Shown: positions 31,124-41,488, counted from the stretch's first letter. The stretch is 64,000 nucleotides of DNA from Candidatus Bathyarchaeota archaeon (GCA_963833575.1 CAWHXY010000006.1:160001-224000); one strand, 5' to 3'. The notes: generated from the sequence alone by a model not told the origin. A program made the numbers and translations.

Positions 31124-31214
31124 TTTCTACACCACTTCTCAAAAAACTATTAAATGTCAGTTATAAAGCTATGCCATATCTACCCAAGTTTTAAGCTGAA
31201 ATAAATAAAAGAGG

Positions 31215-31333
31215 GCTGCCAGCTTTCCCAGGTTCACGTGGCCTAAGACCACACTACAGCTGGAAACGGAACACGGTTTAACTTCTGAGTTCGGTATGGG
31301 ATCAGGTGGAACCCGTGCCCTATGACCGGCAAA
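31215..31333 (-). rRNA. rrf: 5S rRNA (stand-alone)
   Basis: Minus strand TTGCCGGTCATAG...CCACCTGATCCCATACCGAACTCAGAAGTTAA...CTGGCAGC; helix I GCCGG/CTGGC; T-rich tract downstream; ends approximate. Confidence 0.95.
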
Positions 31334-34230: not shown

Positions 34231-34308
34231 TGGTGGGCCGAGCCGGATTTGAACTGGCGACCTTTCGATTATCAGTCGAACGCTCCAGCCGTGCTGAGCT
34301 ACCGGCCC
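34231..34308 (-). tRNA. tRNA-Ile(GAT), CCA encoded, no intron
   Basis: GGGCCGG TA GCTCAGCACGGCTGGAGC G TTCGA CT-GAT-AA TCGAA AGGTC GCCAG TTCAAAT CCGGC TCGGCCC A CCA. Confidence 0.95.
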
Positions 34309-34324
34309 ACCTTGTGAAGCACAG

Positions 34325-34355
34325 AACTTAATATAATGTTAGTTTATAAGAATTG
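34325..34355. promoter_or_regulatory. Divergent TATA-like boxes between the two tRNAs
   Basis: TTAATATAA and TTTATAAG in the 95-bp spacer. Confidence 0.5.
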
Positions 34356-34403
34356 TCATAAATCTTTTAATGCTACACCATTATTGCTTGTTTTGTTAAG
34401 AGT

Positions 34404-34482
34404 GGGCTCGTAGCCTAGCACGGATTAAGGTGTCGGCCTTCGGAGCCGGAGATCGTGGGTTCAAATCCCACCGGGCCCGCCA
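34404..34482 (+). tRNA. tRNA-Arg(TCG), CCA encoded, no intron
   Basis: GGGCTCG TA GCCTAGCACGGATTAAGGT G TCGGC CT-TCG-GA GCCGG AGATC GTGGG TTCAAAT CCCAC CGGGCCC G CCA. Confidence 0.96.
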
Positions 34483-34649
34483 CATAAATTTTTGCCTCCT
34501 TGCCTCAAAGTCCTAAACCACAAATGCAACTCTAAAATTGCGACTCTTAGCCACCCGACTACGACATTGATCACAGCTTTTGTGACAATTGCAAACGACG
34601 CACACAACGTTAAGTCTCAATTTCTAGAAAAGACACTAAGCGACACTAC

Positions 34650-35357
34650 ATGAAGACTACAAACGTAATCGTTTTCCTCTTTGTAATAGTCTTATTAGTA
34701 ATTTCTGGAAATGCTGCGATGGTTCAAACACAATCTTCACAAACACAAATCCTTACCCATGATTTTGGCGATAACGCCGAAATCAATTCGGCAGACACGA
34801 ACGTTTTTGCCTATGATGTAAGTCAAAGTTTGGAAAATGAACCAAATGGCGGATGGGTAAGCGACAACATTTACCAAGTAAACTGGACTATACGGCTCGA
34901 CTATATTAACCAAGATATCATTAATGGCAGCAGTTACATTCTCTTCTTTTTGCCCTCACCTTTAGATACGAATTCCAACGTCGCGACACAAGCTATTACA
35001 AATCAAACGCAACTGAACCTTACTCAGAAAACTGGAACATTATGCGTAACGTTCAAACCCGAGAATATCACAGGCTACTTCTTTAGTCTCAATCTCCGAT
35101 TTGCAGTCTACATTAACGGCGTAATTGCAACGAATCATTTGAGAACCGATGCTTCTCAAAACGCAGGATTTTCAACCGAGATATCTCAAAACACAGAATT
35201 CTCACCCAATACATTAAGTAATGAAAACTCATTGGAAGTAGCACAAGCCCCAGAGATTCCATCGTTAGCGGTTGTAACAACGCTGTTGATTGCAGTCTTT
35301 GTGATCAGTTTAGTACTGTTGATGGTAAGAAAACGTATTGCAAACCACCCAACCTGA
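34650..35357 (+). CDS. Secreted surface protein with PEF-CTERM-like sorting signal
   Basis: Signal peptide; C-terminal APEIP, TM helix, RKR. Confidence 0.65.
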   Translation: MKTTNVIVFLFVIVLLVISGNAAMVQTQSSQTQILTHDFGDNAEINSADTNVFAYDVSQSLENEPNGGWVSDNIYQVNWTIRLDYINQDIINGSSYILFFLPSPLDTNSNVATQAITNQTQLNLTQKTGTLCVTFKPENITGYFFSLNLRFAVYINGVIATNHLRTDASQNAGFSTEISQNTEFSPNTLSNENSLEVAQAPEIPSLAVVTTLLIAVFVISLVLLMVRKRIANHPT

Positions 35358-35370
35358 CAATCTTGTTTGC

Positions 35371-35778
35371 TCATTTATTGAGCAAAGAAATAATGAAACT
35401 TTGTATTTCCTCAAGACGAGATTGAAGGCTATCCAGAGCTGTTTTACCCGAATCTCCCAAAGCGTAAAATCTGGTTTTTTTATCTGGAATTACCTTAATG
35501 TATCCTCTCCGTTCTAGTTTGTAGAGAATAGAATATAGGGTGCCAGGGCTCATTCGAATATCATATTTTTTGAGGAAGAAATCTATTATATCCGGAGCAC
35601 TTAGAGCTTCCTTTCTAGTCAATTCTTCCAGAATCGCAATATCTGAGAATGCCTTAAGGAGCTTCCGTTTTTCTTCCAACACGAATTTATTGTCAAAAAC
35701 TGGATCAACTGTTGAATTTTCCAAAAAACTAGTTGGCTCATCGCTAAGGTGGATTCTATCTACCATTCCCACACACAC
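35371..35778 (-). CDS. PadR-family wHTH regulator
   Basis: D.AIL..L, SPGTLYSILYKLERRGYI, FYAL...G. Confidence 0.85.
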   Translation of the reverse strand: MCVGMVDRIHLSDEPTSFLENSTVDPVFDNKFVLEEKRKLLKAFSDIAILEELTRKEALSAPDIIDFFLKKYDIRMSPGTLYSILYKLERRGYIKVIPDKKTRFYALGDSGKTALDSLQSRLEEIQSFIISLLNK

Positions 35779-35928
35779 TCGAAGCTCAATTGTTATTCTT
35801 CAGATTTAAAACTATCGCTTGCACTATATTCGGCAAAGCTTTAATTCAGAATTCGTTTATAGGAAACATCTTGAGGGTGTGTGCGTGCGTTTACTAACAT
35901 GTAACTTTAGGTTGGGAGGGGTGAGGGA

Positions 35929-37404
35929 ATGAATCAAGACTTTGTTATGAAATTAATCAGGTATCCGCCAGTTGGAAAATTGGCGTTGAACATGATGAAA
36001 AACAACGCCCTCAAACCATTTCTTATTTCATCCAAAGTTATTGCTGAGAAACAAGAAAAAATATTAAGAAAGAAGTTTCGAATTTTAGAACATACAGAAA
36101 TTGGAAGAAAACTCGGCGTAAAAGAGGGAGGAAAGCTAGAAGCACTTCCAGTTACAGATTATGAGTTTTATGCGCCTTTCTTCAACAATCCTTCTTCGAA
36201 CTCTCTAATGTATCCATTGAATGAATACGAACGAACAAGAACCAGCGGCACATCGGGAAAAGAGAAGTGGTTTTTGATACCGAGAAGCTATATCTACAAA
36301 TCAATAATTGAGACTGCTATACAAGTCCAACTTTTCTCTACTCATGATGGTGATAAAATTAGGTTGGATTATGGCGATACGATTTATATTAACACTGCTC
36401 CAAGGCCATTTTTAGGGGGAGTAATGGTTTCAGTGGCTTCTGGCAAAAAAGAAAAACCACCATTATTCAATGTGGTGCCTAATTTTAATATTTCATTTGA
36501 GGATAAAGTAAAATATTTTACTAATAATTGTGACCAAATAGATGTTGCTGTTACTCAAGCGTCCATACTTGTATCTCAAATAATGCCTGCTGCAAAAAAG
36601 GCTGTAAATCTGAAAGGATTATTTTGTCCAGACACTACTATTGCTGAGTCGTACTTTGATGAAATACAAAAATTCACTGGAGTCACGCCTAGAACTGCTT
36701 ATGGCTCGACTGAAACATTACATTGTTCAATCCCATCAGTGCAACATCCGCTGGGTTTCTTTCTAGACTGGAGACGAGGCTTTTTTGAGTTTAAATCTTT
36801 GAAACATGAAGAAGAAAAAGAAATAGTGGGCATTGATCAAGTAAAAGTTGGCGAAGTTTACCGAGTAATATTTACAAATCTTGAAGCGGATTTAACCCGT
36901 TATAACACGTCAAATTCGTTCAAATGTATTGCCACTGGAGATGATATTCTTGGCATTGATTACCCCATTTTCAAGTTCCATTCAAGATTAGATAAAACAA
37001 TTTCTCTGCACAACTTTACAAGGATAAATGAAAATGAACTCACAACAGCTTTGAAGGAAAGCAAAATACAGTGTGTCGAATTTGTAGCCAAGAGTGAAAT
37101 AACCGAAGGATTAGAATACCTGACACTTTATTTGGAGACCACAGATTGTCAAAATAAAGAAGATATTTCAAAAGCAATCCATAAAAGCCTTTATCAAATG
37201 GACGAGGCTTACAAGGATCTAGTCGATTTTTACCATTATTCTCCAATAAAAGTGGTTCTCTTACCTGAAGGTACTTTCGGAAAATACTTGACGCTAAAAG
37301 CTGCAACAGTTTCAAAAGTTGGAAGGATTGAGATGCCTGATGAAGAAATTAATAAGCTGATTCAAATAGCCAAAAGTAAGGACAACACATGGCAATCGAC
37401 CTAA
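35929..37404 (+). CDS. GH3-family acyl-adenylate/acyl-amido synthetase
   Basis: LPVTDYE.Y, RTSGTSGKEKW..IP (motif I), AYGSTE (motif II), FFEF, VKVGEVYRVIFT...LTRY (motif III region), F.SR. Confidence 0.82.
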   Translation: MNQDFVMKLIRYPPVGKLALNMMKNNALKPFLISSKVIAEKQEKILRKKFRILEHTEIGRKLGVKEGGKLEALPVTDYEFYAPFFNNPSSNSLMYPLNEYERTRTSGTSGKEKWFLIPRSYIYKSIIETAIQVQLFSTHDGDKIRLDYGDTIYINTAPRPFLGGVMVSVASGKKEKPPLFNVVPNFNISFEDKVKYFTNNCDQIDVAVTQASILVSQIMPAAKKAVNLKGLFCPDTTIAESYFDEIQKFTGVTPRTAYGSTETLHCSIPSVQHPLGFFLDWRRGFFEFKSLKHEEEKEIVGIDQVKVGEVYRVIFTNLEADLTRYNTSNSFKCIATGDDILGIDYPIFKFHSRLDKTISLHNFTRINENELTTALKESKIQCVEFVAKSEITEGLEYLTLYLETTDCQNKEDISKAIHKSLYQMDEAYKDLVDFYHYSPIKVVLLPEGTFGKYLTLKAATVSKVGRIEMPDEEINKLIQIAKSKDNTWQST

Positions 37405-38552
37405 ATCTCTTAGCAGAGACGGCTAATTCGCTGGTCACTATAACCTGCGGTCTATTGCTGATATATCTTATTCAACGTGGAAAACTGCAGCATAATCGAT
37501 TTTATTACAGTTGGTCCGCAGGTTTTATTTTGTATGGAGTTTACATTTTTTTGAGGCCCTTATCCGCAAATGTTTTGATCGATATTCCTATGGTAATTGC
37601 ATTTCTCATTTTCATTCCATTTTCAATGTTCACATTGAATTCTCAGAAAAATGTAACCGCGCTAATTTTTGCTGCTACAATGCTTATCGTTATTTTGTTT
37701 GTGCCTTTTTCATATTTTGGTTATCTTAAGGAGAGTGTGTCTTTTTGGATTATCTCGTCTGTACTTTTTTACTTACCCGTTACTATTGTTATAGCAACGC
37801 ATAGAAAAATTTTTGGAAGTAGTGTAGATAAGTTTTTGATAGGCTGGGTTTCGCTATTTCTTGTAAACATCTTCTTTCCACTAGGAAACTGGATAACGAA
37901 TGCTCTTGCAATTGGGTGTAAACTTTTTTTGTTCATGGGGCTATTGGATTACGATTTTGCCATAGCTACAGAAAAAATCCGAAAAGGACTAGCGCCAAGT
38001 AGCCTGTCCCCAATTTCTGGGAATTGCGCTAAGGATGAAGGTGGCTTCGAACTCGTGCTGCTTAAACCCAGGGCAGAAGCTCCTTTGCCAATTGTGTCAA
38101 AATGGCTAGTTGATCACGTTGAGAAAAACATAAGTGGAAATGTTGAAACGACAGTTCTAATCTTGCAAGATGTTCTTCCCTATAATGTTGTACGGTCAAT
38201 CGTTTGGAGCAAGCCAAATCTTATTCGCGTTCTCTTCTTTTCTGATGGAGTTTCTTCAAGCAATCAAGAATTCAAAACTCTAAAATTTGGCGTAACTGAA
38301 ATAGGTGCAACCATCAATGAGGTAGCAAAATCAGAATCTAAAGCTAACCAATGCGGCGAAATAATCATAGTGGACCTTTCAATTATGATTTATAAGTTTG
38401 GAGTTAACCAAGTTTATGACTTATTATTGAACAAAATGGGAATTTTAAGATCCAATGGAACTAAATTGATAGCTCTTTTTCACCCACAGGCGCATGAAGA
38501 TCGTGTGACAGCTCTTTTCAAAACAATTGCCAATCGCATAACGAACTTGTAA
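37389..38552 (+). CDS. Multi-TM (about 7) sensor fused to a DUF835-like (inactive KaiC/RecA-fold) domain
   Basis: About 7 hydrophobic helices, then IIIVDLS.MIY.FG...VY..L....LR......IAL.HP..H; no Walker A; overlaps the GH3 stop. Confidence 0.62.
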   Translation: MAIDLNLLAETANSLVTITCGLLLIYLIQRGKLQHNRFYYSWSAGFILYGVYIFLRPLSANVLIDIPMVIAFLIFIPFSMFTLNSQKNVTALIFAATMLIVILFVPFSYFGYLKESVSFWIISSVLFYLPVTIVIATHRKIFGSSVDKFLIGWVSLFLVNIFFPLGNWITNALAIGCKLFLFMGLLDYDFAIATEKIRKGLAPSSLSPISGNCAKDEGGFELVLLKPRAEAPLPIVSKWLVDHVEKNISGNVETTVLILQDVLPYNVVRSIVWSKPNLIRVLFFSDGVSSSNQEFKTLKFGVTEIGATINEVAKSESKANQCGEIIIVDLSIMIYKFGVNQVYDLLLNKMGILRSNGTKLIALFHPQAHEDRVTALFKTIANRITNL

Positions 38553-38686
38553 AAAGAACAAAGCCACAACTTAGATGCTATCTTAAGATAAAGAATTGCA
38601 AAGGTTCTGGAGACATTTTTAGCTGTAGATTAGCTACAAATTTGATAAACTTCTTCAGAAAAACTTACCAACGAAGGACGAGCTTG

Positions 38687-39412
38687 TTAAATTCTGATGG
38701 TTTCTGATGCGAATACTCTTAGTCCATTCTCTGTAATTTCATATTTTCGCGGTTGGTCGTCATGGGCTGTTCCTCTCATTTTTTCTACTCTGATTGTTTT
38801 AGTGACCAGAAAGTTCCGTAGTGTCTGTGCCATGATGATAACGCCGTCAGCTAGGTATTCTTCCACGTAGAAGTCATCTTCTGAGGGTGAGGAAGATTCA
38901 GAGGTTATCACTGAGGTGCACTTTAGTTTTCGTAGCGATTTTATTAATTCGAGGATTTCAAGTCTTTTGTCAGTTGGAAACCGCTGATGAATTATTGCGC
39001 TTGTAATAGGGTCAACAACTAGTCTTGTTGCTCCAAAACTTTCTGCTTCAATTACTATTTGATTAACGATTTGAGAGATCACTGGTTTGGGCGAGTTATA
39101 ATTGCTTTTAATTTCCTCACTGAATTTGAAGACCAATGGGCTGCCATCAATTAATTTGAGCATATTCTTTTTTTCCAGTTTCTCCAAATCTAAGCCTACA
39201 CTCGCTGCAGCCATTCTAATTGAGTCAATAGGTTCTTCAAGCGTTAGGTAGATACCTTTCTCCCCTTTTTTTGCACCTTCAGCAATAAATTGAAGAGAAA
39301 AAATAGTTTTCCCAGTTCCTGGTCCACCGCGAACTAAGATTATCTTGTTTTCGAGAAAACCTCCACCAAGCATCTCGTCTAAACCCGTTACGCCGGTCGA
39401 TATTCGAATCAT
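38687..39412 (-). CDS. Single-domain KaiC/RAD55-like ATPase
   Basis: RISTGV.GLDEMLGGG, GGPGTGKT, YLTLEE, RLVVDP, EEYLADGVI, VEKMRGT.HD. Confidence 0.93.
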   Translation of the reverse strand: MIRISTGVTGLDEMLGGGFLENKIILVRGGPGTGKTIFSLQFIAEGAKKGEKGIYLTLEEPIDSIRMAAASVGLDLEKLEKKNMLKLIDGSPLVFKFSEEIKSNYNSPKPVISQIVNQIVIEAESFGATRLVVDPITSAIIHQRFPTDKRLEILELIKSLRKLKCTSVITSESSSPSEDDFYVEEYLADGVIIMAQTLRNFLVTKTIRVEKMRGTAHDDQPRKYEITENGLRVFASETIRI

Positions 39413-39676
39413 CTTTTATCGCTTAAACTACTTAGATGTTTGTTATATATTTATTAATGAAGCAAACTAAGAAGTTTTCATCTCCGCACGAATTCCATCG
39501 CTAAATTGGATATTTTCAAATTTAATAGATAACTACACAAATGTCTTCCATTAAGCATACAAAGACAAATTTCTTAGAAATATTATGAATGATTGTGCCA
39601 TATTTTTGTTGGCAACCTTGCACGGTGACAAAGCTTTTATGCTGTTTGAAACAAAACAATTACAGAGGTTTTTAAA

Positions 39677-40240
39677 ATGTCGTTGGAGTCAGGAAAAAAT
39701 TTGGGCGGTATTGGATCAATATTTTTGGTAATTCCGGTGCCATTTCTAAGCATTGTAGGCATAATACTTGTTCTGATAGGCATGAAAAATTTGTCACAGG
39801 CATATAATGACGAAAGTATCTGGAAGAACACAATTTACGCAGTAGTCTTTGGAATCATAGGAATAGTCGGTGCAGGGTTGGCGCTTTTCTCAGTGTTTTT
39901 CGGATCGATTATTTCTGGCGCAACTTTAGGAGCAGGAGGAGGCTTAGCAGGATTTTTTGTAGGACTTATAGTATTTCTCTTTGTTGCTTTCATATTCTAC
40001 ATACTTGAAGCCATCTATATTCGAAAAGCATTTGATTCCCTCGCAAACAAATCAGGAGTCGGGCTATTCAGAACTGGAGGATTGCTGCTGCTCATCGGTG
40101 CGGTTCTTACAATCGTCTTAGTTGGTTTATTCTTGATCTTCATTGCCTGGATACTGATACTTGTCGCATTCTTCCAAATACCAGTAAATCCAACTTCACC
40201 GCAGACCCAGATGCCTTCGCCACCACCAACAATGACCTAA
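39677..40240 (+). CDS. DUF996-family membrane protein
   Basis: K.LGGIGSI, IVG.ILVL, F.T.G.L..IGA.L.I.LVG..L..IA.IL..VAFF. Confidence 0.85.
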   Translation: MSLESGKNLGGIGSIFLVIPVPFLSIVGIILVLIGMKNLSQAYNDESIWKNTIYAVVFGIIGIVGAGLALFSVFFGSIISGATLGAGGGLAGFFVGLIVFLFVAFIFYILEAIYIRKAFDSLANKSGVGLFRTGGLLLLIGAVLTIVLVGLFLIFIAWILILVAFFQIPVNPTSPQTQMPSPPPTMT

Positions 40241-40485
40241 ACCCCTTTTTTCCTTTTTAAATAGCGGTAATGGCTATTTGTCATTAGAATTGGATAATGT
40301 TTGTTGAGGCTCTGGAAAAAATTTTTCTTTAAGAGAAAAGAATGCAATGAAATTAGCTATAACTACATTATTTGGTAAACGGATGTCATGCTTTTCAAAT
40401 GTGTCTTTCTCTGGTTAGTGCTTAACAAGAATGATTCAACACTGTTATATTTTGCGAGCTTACTAGAAAGTATAGGCGACAGTTT

Positions 40486-40929
40486 TTGAAAAAAGAATTG
40501 ACAAGTAGTATTGACGTAAATGGCTCGCCCGCCGAAATCTGGTCGGTGCTTACAGATTTTGCAAATTTTCCCATCTGGAATCCTTTTATGCGGTGGATAA
40601 AAGGTGACTTAAGGAAAGGGGCAAAACTTGAAGTGCGGATTCAACCTTCAGGGGCAAGAGGAACAACCTTCAAACCGACAATTCTCACTGTTGATCCGCC
40701 CAAGGAGTTGCGGTGGATCGGGCATCTTTGGACAAGTGGTCTCTTTGACGGAGAACATATCTTAAATATTGAACCCATCGGAAAAAATAAGGTTCGTTTC
40801 TACCAAAAAGAAATCTTTAATGGGCTTTTTGTCAGGGTTCTTGCAAAAAGTCTAGACAAGGATACCCTAAGGGGATTTAACGAAATGAATGAAGCCTTAA
40901 AAGAACAAGTTGAAAAGAGCCATAACTGA
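40486..40929 (+). CDS. SRPBCC/START-fold (polyketide cyclase-like) protein
   Basis: IW.VLTDF..FP.WNPF, ELRW.G, LFDGEH, F..MN.ALK. Confidence 0.88.
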   Translation: MKKELTSSIDVNGSPAEIWSVLTDFANFPIWNPFMRWIKGDLRKGAKLEVRIQPSGARGTTFKPTILTVDPPKELRWIGHLWTSGLFDGEHILNIEPIGKNKVRFYQKEIFNGLFVRVLAKSLDKDTLRGFNEMNEALKEQVEKSHN

Positions 40930-41080
40930 TAACTTTTTGACAGTAGTGAGCTTATGTTTTCATCGAGGAAAAGCAGAATATTTAGCCGGAAACAATGCGC
41001 TCAATTAGGTGACATAGTCAATTATTGTTAGTACAGTCGGCCTTTGAACTGGCTGTCTATTTTTTTTGTTTTCGACACAA

Positions 41081-41488
41081 TCAGCAGAATGTCAAAGTCG
41101 AATGTTCTCTGCGAAGTGATGAACTCGTCGAGATCATATGGGCTGTTTGTGTTGGGATTTTATTGTCGTTTGACATACTTTTAACGATAAAGTTTAGTGA
41201 GTTTTCGGTGAAGTTCAAGACATTTTTACCTTCGTTAGTGAGCGTGTACATTTTTCGTGGTCTTTCTGCATTCATGTTCCAAATGCTCTTTACGTAGCCT
41301 TTTTTCTCAAGTAATCCTAGCAGGGGGTAAACGGTACTGGGTCCGAAGTAGACACCGAAGCCTTTGCGGATTTTTGTGATAATCTGGTATCCGTGCATGG
41401 ATTCTTTGTCGAGATATTGAAGAACAATCAGGTCTAAGAGGCCTTTAGTGAGTTTTGTTTGAGTTTCTTTTTGGTAATTATTGTTCAT
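41081..41488 (-). CDS. PadR-family wHTH regulator
   Basis: KGLLDLIVL, MHGYQII, GPSTVYPLL..LE.KGY, RPRK.Y.LT..G. Confidence 0.93.
   Translation of the reverse strand: MNNNYQKETQTKLTKGLLDLIVLQYLDKESMHGYQIITKIRKGFGVYFGPSTVYPLLGLLEKKGYVKSIWNMNAERPRKMYTLTNEGKNVLNFTENSLNFIVKSMSNDNKIPTQTAHMISTSSSLRREHSTLTFC

Follow-up and report, generated by a model that had tools for sequence, protein, structure and literature searches.

Gene content and layout of the locus

A stretch of 64,000 nucleotides from a Candidatus Bathyarchaeota archaeon (GCA_963833575.1 CAWHXY010000006.1:160001-224000; hereafter the window, its genome being G000) encodes, at positions 35371-39412, a PadR-family regulator, a GH3-family amido synthetase, a seven-transmembrane (7TM) protein with a cytoplasmic RecA-fold domain, and a KaiC-like ATPase. 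An earlier note on this DNA had proposed that these four genes form a small-molecule signalling system, and had described a GH3 gene overlapping the 7TM gene by 16 bp and a convergent KaiC gene; a listing of the open reading frames (ORFs) of the window returns all four at the positions and on the strands given there. The 7TM ORF starts at 37389, 16 nt inside the GH3 ORF (stop at 37404), and the stop codons of the convergent 7TM and KaiC genes are 134 nt apart. The features of the locus are as follows.

35371-35778, minus strand: PadR-family winged-helix regulator, 135 aa, GTG start, divergent from GH3
35779-35928, no strand: PadR-GH3 divergent intergenic region, 150 bp; presumed shared promoter and operator (inferred roles)
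35929-37404, plus strand: short GH3-family acyl-acid amido synthetase, 491 aa; Pfam GH3_M
37389-38552, plus strand: 7TM membrane protein, whole, 387 aa; no Pfam match
37389-37985, plus strand: 7TM receptor-fold domain, residues 1-199 (AlphaFold2 model)
38025-38552, plus strand: cytoplasmic RecA-fold domain without Walker A, residues 213-387 (structure alignment); distantly DUF835-like
38687-39412, minus strand: single-domain KaiC-like ATPase, 241 aa; PF06745; convergent with the 7TM gene

The arrangement of the three core genes (GH3, 7TM, and KaiC) is more than chance, as the three are adjacent in most of the related loci found.

Conservation of the GH3/7TM/KaiC linkage

The GH3, 7TM, and KaiC genes very probably constitute a real, functionally linked module. 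One genome per species was scanned, using family profiles against ORFs, and 24 loci with this GH3 were recovered; by record title, nearly all belong to Bathyarchaeia or Bathyarchaeota, with one bacterial bin name. The 7TM gene adjoins GH3 in 21 of these 24 genome loci, and the other three are truncated: the contig ends inside GH3 in L020 and L033, and in L037 GH3 is cut at the contig start, with neither partner within 4 kb downstream. KaiC is adjacent in 17/24, contig ends limiting the view in L021, L030, L033, and L037. Nine metagenome loci (GH3 identity 47-93%) give the same picture, with 7TM adjacent in eight and KaiC likewise in eight.

The earlier note had made its proposal hinge mainly on the linkage not being unique to this genome, and the proposal clearly stands up to this check. 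The three genes are found adjacent in Bathyarchaeia in at least five orders: GH3>7TM><KaiC, KaiC>GH3><7TM, 7TM>GH3><KaiC, (PadR>)KaiC>GH3>7TM, and a split form. The split form occurs twice in one genome, G268 (L038, 4021-6621; L039, 5232-7884), where a RecA-domain ORF, GH3, and a 7TM ORF follow one another in that order, all overlapping; no KaiC gene lies within approximately 4 kb of either locus, and KaiC-like genes are present elsewhere in G268. For every pair of core genes there is at least one lineage in which the two are co-operonic, and the stop codon of one often overlaps the start codon of the other.

The linkage also holds at the level of gene presence. Among 401 genomes drawn from the class, the 7TM protein (E ≤ 1e-5) was detected in 46 and this GH3 (E ≤ 1e-40) in 42, and all 42 fall within the 46; in two of the four genomes that have 7TM alone, contig ends truncate the locus. 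Two related genomes (L003, L005) encode GH3 paralogues that are longer and distant, and no 7TM gene lies beside these, so the linkage is specific to the short GH3 subfamily. Pairwise distances over the 21 complete loci are correlated for GH3 and 7TM (r 0.972), GH3 and KaiC (0.801), and 7TM and KaiC (0.829), values that are descriptive only, because related sequences are not independent.

Comparison of neighbours found no further gene family common to all arrangement types, and GH3 is thus the only enzymatic output in the module. What recurs beyond the core is clade-specific housekeeping synteny only (prolyl-tRNA synthetase, metallo-beta-lactamase-fold proteins, major facilitator superfamily (MFS) transporters, ferredoxin-like proteins, and M19 dipeptidase), and the MFS genes near two of the module clades are unrelated to each other. 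Fused forms longer than 682 aa were sought and none was found, which is weak evidence.

Three individual loci merit description. L024 is titled Krumholzibacteriaceae bacterium, yet approximately 10 kb of it are syntenic with Bathyarchaeia loci, and the contig has probably been mis-binned. In G067 (L042, 2549-6659), the 7TM/RecA-fold protein stands alone, with no GH3 or KaiC near; its neighbours are a TackOD1 output-domain protein and a glycosyltransferase of family 2. A REC-PAS-histidine-kinase gene adjoins the module in two genomes of different families (L013, 9675-12677, in G023; L012, 13670-15976, in G034), an adjacency that may be due to chance because PAS proteins are common.

The GH3 ligase

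The window protein matches Pfam GH3_M with 27.1 bits (cut-off 23.6), and its N-terminal domain falls slightly below the cut-off of the GH3 N-domain model PF03321 (22.3 bits vs. 23.6). Its relatives among 5.8 billion protein clusters number 76, are approximately 480 aa long, and mostly match PF23571, with matches to PF23572 or PF03321 in some; two are named GH3 in their source. When a profile of 38 family members was compared with the PDB, all 10 of the 10 matches were plant GH3 enzymes, the best being JAR1 (E 4.2e-10).

The nucleotide-binding motifs of GH3 enzymes have been defined as SSGTSxGxxK-like (motif I) and YGSSE-like (motif II) (PMC12493201). Both have conserved counterparts in the 38 family members (TSGTSGKEK at 105-113 and YGSTE at 258-262 of the window protein), among which T105, S106, T108, T261, and E262 are invariant. 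The window protein is presumably a working adenylating ligase. The one characterised prokaryotic GH3 that our literature search returned is OlsH, a bacterial enzyme that makes N-acyl ornithine for a membrane lipid (PMC12493201).

The GH3_M match, structure matches confined to GH3 enzymes, and motifs I and II are shared with the plant and bacterial enzymes (JAR1, GH3.12/PBS3, indole-3-acetic acid-amido synthetases, and OlsH). The window protein differs from them in that its N-domain scores below the Pfam cut-off, the motif III Asp is off the aligned column, and, at 491 aa, it is approximately 100 residues shorter than plant GH3 enzymes (575-620 aa). It also differs in setting, which is a receptor/ATPase module in place of a lipid operon (OlsH-OlsI) or a hormone pathway.

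The membrane protein

The 7TM protein belongs to a small family of its own. Only 16 matches were found among 5.8 billion clusters, and a profile search returned 108 representatives among 1.84 billion proteins, all with the same build of approximately 380 aa or fragments of it; the window protein has no Pfam match. AlphaFold2, run on the family alignment, gave a predicted local distance difference test score (pLDDT) of 79.4 when the protein was modelled in full and of 81.4 when residues 1-205 were modelled by themselves. The N-terminal part is modelled as seven transmembrane (TM) helices and one amphipathic helix, in agreement with the earlier description of a protein with roughly seven such helices, and is followed by an alpha/beta domain at 213-387. 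Counts of Lys and Arg in the loops (positive-inside rule) predict that the N-terminus is outside and the C-terminus inside.

Structure matches to the bundle span 184-198 of the 205 residues and include designed GPCR-like folds (Z 13.9), microbial rhodopsins (Z 11-13.7, TM-score 0.5-0.6), PAQR proteins (ACER3, Z 12.6; AdipoR2, Z 12.0), and G-protein-coupled receptors (GPCRs; Z 10-11). As these values possibly express a shared arrangement only, we read the bundle as a receptor-like fold and nothing narrower. The residues N13 and T17 (TM1), W42 (TM2), G152 and W153 (TM6), K178 and G184 (TM7), and F190 are invariant in 20 sequences drawn from all clades, and no feature of the domain stands out more than the unvarying K178 halfway along TM7. 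Helix 3 is its least conserved part; in rhodopsins, this helix bears key residues. We did not class the bundle as a microbial rhodopsin: the scores for GPCRs and PAQR proteins are almost as high, helix 3 is poorly conserved, and K178 is at most a candidate counterpart of the retinal-binding Schiff-base lysine that rhodopsins carry in helix 7.

The C-terminal domain (residues 213-387) has a RecA/KaiC-type fold, the match being at superfamily level only: it aligns with RecA (5jrj; Z 13.9, root-mean-square deviation 2.9 over 137 residues), FlaH (4yds; Z 13.6 over 150 residues), and KaiC (7dy1_B; Z 12.7 over 154 residues), and Rho is also matched (overall Z range 12-14). The Walker A (P-loop) motif GxxxxGK[ST] is absent from the family alignment. 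The earlier note had regarded this domain as an inactive, KaiC-like one, and would have given up its proposal had the fold been of another kind; the fold and the loss of the P-loop bear it out, whereas likeness in sequence to the partner KaiC does not extend to it.

The DUF835 label fared similarly, in that distant homology was detected and the Pfam model failed. An alignment of six DUF835 or DUF835-like proteins from related genomes (three above the Pfam cut-off, three below) matched the 7TM family with hhalign at 89.5% probability (E 2e-6, 153 columns, residues 215-379). Pfam DUF835 itself matched one of 18 family members (E 0.15) and gave no match in a six-frame search of G000. Galperin et al. 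(2018; PMC5847659) list DUF835 as an inactivated form of the KaiC domain that occurs in fusions with REC and PAS domains. From homology and modelled fold together, the domain is best described as a distant DUF835-like, inactivated-KaiC-type domain that appears to have lost its P-loop. A predicted complex of the C-terminal domain (205-387) with KaiC scored 0.00, which we take neither for nor against binding. Look-alikes in the ESM Atlas include DUF835 and HisKA_7TM+DUF835 clusters (a lead only). Pfam DUF7504, a family of unknown function, gave weak matches in 7 of 18 family members (best E 0.0011), and is perhaps a relative of this domain, likewise RecA-like in fold and inactivated.

The KaiC-like ATPase

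The ATPase was described in the earlier note as intact, and its catalytic residues agree: Walker A (GGPGTGKT), E59-E60, D134, and the Arg finger R213 are invariant in 17 orthologues. It matches Pfam KaiC (PF06745) with 201 bits and is the only strong KaiC-family gene of G000 (200.6 bits, the next two scoring 38.3 and 35.8), so the ATPase belongs to the module and is no general hub in this genome. It scores below every NCBIfam equivalog cut-off (KaiC_arch_3, 142.6 vs. 249.45; ArlH, 37.8 vs. 215), and on this basis is classified as a generic single-domain archaeal KaiC-like ATPase, being neither a clock KaiC nor ArlH. The cyanobacterial circadian KaiC, which has two KaiC domains in tandem, was rejected as an identity, given a single domain of 241 aa and low scores against PRK09302 (151.8 vs. 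408) and TIGR02655 (113 vs. 546).

With the archaeal single-domain KaiC-like ATPases (FlaH/ArlH, PH0284, and Haloferax Cir) it has in common a single RecA-like domain of approximately 240 aa, Walker A and B motifs, the paired catalytic Glu, and the Arg finger. It differs from them in not lying in an archaellum locus, in being the sole strong copy of its genome, and in travelling with the module.

PadR and the intergenic region

The earlier note had counted PadR as a full member of the set. The gene does adjoin the module here and recurs beside it, but over the 34 loci (the window, the 24 genome loci, and the nine metagenome loci) the gene directly upstream of the module is of the PadR family in only six. 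In four of these it is divergent from GH3 (the window, L033, L056, L060), and in two it heads a PadR>KaiC>GH3 row (L020, L058); another small winged-helix gene, with a weak Pfam match, is near the module in four other loci. The window PadR is itself a marginal match to PF03551 (28.6 bits vs. a cut-off of 27, covering profile positions 20-74 of 75). As G000 has 14 PadR paralogues, one adjacency alone says little, and it is the recurrence that makes PadR a real but clade-limited fourth component, present only in the sub-clade of the window.

The intergenic region (35779-35928) has A/T-rich, TATA-like stretches and a purine-rich stretch directly before the GH3 ATG, and is presumed to be a promoter and operator shared by PadR and GH3. 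A search of the region for an operator-like inverted repeat returned only one 9-nt A/T palindrome. Its only close relative is that of L056 (a 93%-related locus), which is 89% identical and too similar for footprinting.

Distribution and probable horizontal acquisition

The module is patchily distributed. Among 40 relatives, the 7TM gene occurs in two genomes of the same genus and one of the same order, and in the class draw the module was found in 1/103 genomes of the window's own family vs. 37/71 in another family (f24), whose members carry several paralogous GH3/7TM pairs per genome. Copies in decay were also encountered. In L012 (G034:C13, 8276-11583), none of the three core genes is whole, each having internal stops or being divided into pieces, and in L011 (G005:C12, 8715-13875), from the same genus as the window, 7TM and KaiC are intact and GH3 is a 70-residue remnant. 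Approximately 3 kb from the L011 copy are an ORF resembling a tyrosine recombinase and a stretch masked with N.

The following feature, listed for context only and not part of the module, lies upstream of it in the window.

34231-34482, no strand: tRNA-Ile/tRNA-Arg pair (ARAGORN, Rfam), synteny breakpoint upstream of the module

The two genes, tRNA-Ile(GAT) (34231-34308, minus strand) and tRNA-Arg(TCG) (34404-34482, plus strand), are divergent and directly upstream of the module. In DNA comparisons, five genomes of the same genus match the window up to this pair and none of them matches 34.5-40.3 kb; the DNA polymerase flank is situated far away in all five. GC content is 0.36-0.38 over 36-42 kb vs. 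approximately 0.42 elsewhere in the window. A break in synteny at the tRNA pair, together with patchiness within the genus, fits horizontal transfer; no integrase was found within the window, nor an att-like direct repeat of the tRNA genes. The interval 34500-40300 looks like an acquired island, and horizontal acquisition of the module is likely on these genomic signs. The module is self-contained, appears to move between genomes, and has so far been seen only in Bathyarchaeia.

Proposed function of the module

We favour a reading of the module as a ligand-coupled, KaiC-type signalling unit, in which GH3 would be the output enzyme acting on the sensed compound; we put its probability at roughly 0.4, on the strength of gene linkage, homology, and structural models. 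Two parts of this reading differ in standing. That the 7TM/pseudo-ATPase protein and KaiC act as a signalling pair is probable, whereas the role of GH3 in removing the ligand is a tentative assignment, though it is better placed than that of GH3 as a signal synthase, which we consider unlikely.

Under this scheme, the 7TM bundle would bind a hydrophobic carboxylic acid, or the conjugate of that acid with an amino acid, in a pocket within the membrane that includes the invariant K178, and occupancy would be relayed through the pseudo-ATPase domain to the KaiC ATPase, after the DUF835/KaiC scheme for archaea. GH3 would act on the same compound as the 7TM bundle, conjugating the sensed acid, perhaps an aromatic or phenolic one, to an amino acid, by which the acid would be inactivated or marked. 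Where PadR is present, it might de-repress the GH3-7TM operon in the presence of the acid. GH3 is favoured as the output because no second output is conserved in the module, which can travel as a set of three genes, and because the regulator that has been added to it is of the PadR family. PadR proteins are known for responses to phenolic acids, and the feedback that plant GH3 enzymes exert on auxin is a resemblance to an output enzyme of this kind. A loop of detoxification or homeostasis, with GH3 as its output, fits the data at least as well as the quorum-sensing logic put forward in the earlier note.

Several observations weigh against this reading. In the membrane protein, Z values of 10-14 may, for helical bundles, reflect only a common arrangement of helices. 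Comparison of the 7TM family with the partner KaiC family by hhalign gave a probability of 1.1%, that is, no detectable sequence similarity, so that the label "KaiC-like" for the C-terminal domain rests on fold and on DUF835 homology; for the window protein, Pfam DUF835 (PF05763) gave no match even at E up to 10. In the ligase, the motif III (...YRLGD) column aligned to the JAR1 Asp in the HMM (hidden Markov model) alignment is variable, with N330 at this position of the window protein, and the invariant G-D (D338) is found 8 residues beyond it. The linkage, too, has gaps: KaiC is not adjacent in L025, L028, L031, and both G268 loci, partner-type KaiC genes being located elsewhere in those genomes, and G067 and G090 carry the 7TM protein without GH3 nearby. 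Finally, the aromatic-acid substrate class, as well as the direction of the relation between GH3 and the receptor, are guesses by analogy.

The closest competitor is the autoinducer circuit put forward in the earlier note, a quorum-sensing or hormone-like system. The product of GH3 would be an N-acyl or aryl-acyl amino acid released from the cell, the 7TM domain would sense it outside, KaiC would transduce the signal, and PadR would close the loop. Tight linkage and co-divergence of GH3 and 7TM (r 0.972) are as in cognate synthase-receptor pairs, and the several paralogous pairs per genome in f24 and the patchy, transfer-like distribution of the module fit it as well; the GH3 relative OlsH makes N-acyl amino acids (PMC12493201). 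Against these points stand the lack of a conserved exporter, the MFS genes near two clades being unrelated, and of a DNA-binding output conserved throughout the module, PadR being present in 6/34 loci and the other winged-helix gene in four. We regard such a circuit as improbable, and the same holds for its fuller form, a transferable hormone-like circuit in Bathyarchaeia with an acyl-amino-acid signal made by GH3, a rhodopsin/GPCR-like 7TM receptor that would read it through an intramembrane lysine, and a dedicated KaiC to which the receptor would report, of which a bolder variant would have the acid loaded covalently on the TM7 lysine. That loading, as an explanation in its own right, would have GH3 adenylate an acid and transfer it to K178 of TM7 or to a KaiC lysine, the acyl group then serving as a fixed ligand or an adaptation mark. 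An invariant K178 in the middle of TM7 of a rhodopsin-like bundle, the very tight co-divergence of GH3 and 7TM, and the position of GH3 between the two parts of the split protein in G268 are in keeping with it, and the GH3 relative IaaL accepts lysine or ornithine amines. However, a soluble ligase would need access to a membrane-buried lysine, and no GH3 enzyme is known to modify a protein; we consider this explanation very improbable, even though OlsH likewise accepts lysine or ornithine amines (PMC12493201).

More removed from signalling is a machine for biosynthesis and export, in which GH3 would make an amide-linked lipid or conjugate, the 7TM protein would be its acceptor, a flippase, or a second enzyme, and KaiC, docked on the pseudo-ATPase domain, would supply energy. 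This is suggested by OlsH, which starts aminolipid synthesis and shares an operon with its partner enzyme (PMC12493201), by the G268 loci, where the 7TM domain is a separate ORF beside GH3 with no KaiC nearby, and by the presence of PAQR amidases among the fold matches (ACER3, Z 12.6; AdipoR2, Z 12.0). The 7TM protein, though, is without the His/Asp metal site of PAQR enzymes, its invariant residues being N13, T17, W42, W153, and K178, and in other archaea sensors are built from a seven-helix bundle and a DUF835-like tail, which makes such a machine less likely again than the autoinducer circuit. An anti-virus defence or other conflict system would account for the patchy distribution, for the tRNA-adjacent break in synteny in a lower-GC stretch, and for the recombinase-like gene near the G005 copy; but comparison of the four proteins with the PADLOC models gave nothing of significance (the best match, at 2.3e-4, is to a P-loop stretch), the neighbourhood has no conserved effector gene such as a nuclease or toxin, and the window has no integrase, so we give defence very little weight.

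Relation to known systems

Makarova, Galperin and Koonin are said to have proposed in 2017 (mBio), from genomics alone, that KaiC-like ATPases and DUF835 membrane partners act as major archaeal signalling hubs. The module shares the build of these pairs, in which an N-terminal sensor region of several TM helices is joined to a cytoplasmic, inactivated RecA/KaiC-fold domain, as in the 7TM protein, and an active single-domain KaiC-like ATPase is encoded alongside. The 7TM protein differs from DUF835 sensors in failing PF05763, in forming its own small family (108 representatives), and in being almost always linked to a GH3 ligase. Within the literature covered, this near-obligate GH3 partner is what is new with respect to the proposed sensor/ATPase pairs: our search returned no description of a GH3 link to KaiC or DUF835 in archaea, although "GH3" mostly retrieves glycoside hydrolase family 3, and the 2017 paper, which may bear on this, was outside its coverage.

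The encoding of a small-molecule-forming enzyme beside the presumed binding protein of its molecule, and the inheritance of the two together, have parallels in the LuxI/LuxR-type synthase-receptor pairs by which bacteria sense quorum, in photoactive yellow protein (PYP) with coumarate ligase, and in proteorhodopsin with retinal genes. These cassettes have no homology to the module proteins, and the resemblance is one of logic only.

We know of no ligand or output of any membrane-bound KaiC/DUF835 member. The chemistry of GH3, by which an acid and an amino acid give an amide, provides a chemical handle on the sensor/ATPase pair: a GH3 substrate would point directly to the ligand of the receptor, making the hub hypothesis testable with three soluble or expressible proteins. 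A role for the module would also give archaeal GH3 enzymes their first assigned role, and the module might bring to light a means by which Bathyarchaeia, which are abundant but scarcely cultured, sense other cells or their surroundings. Should it turn out to be a loop that conjugates or detoxifies acids of plant origin, it would bear on the way these archaea cope with lignin-derived compounds; if instead GH3 were a signal synthase, this would be the first synthase-receptor signalling pair in Bathyarchaeia, with the chemistry of plant jasmonoyl-isoleucine (JA-Ile) and auxin conjugates.

Neighbouring genes

Upstream of the module in the window is a lone 5S rRNA gene (31214-31333, minus strand). 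The genes downstream of KaiC, at 39677-41488, encode a membrane protein of the DUF996 type, a ligand-binding protein of SRPBCC/START-like type (Polyketide_cyc2), and a further PadR with a stronger match (60.5 bits), none of which is conserved beside the module in the other loci.

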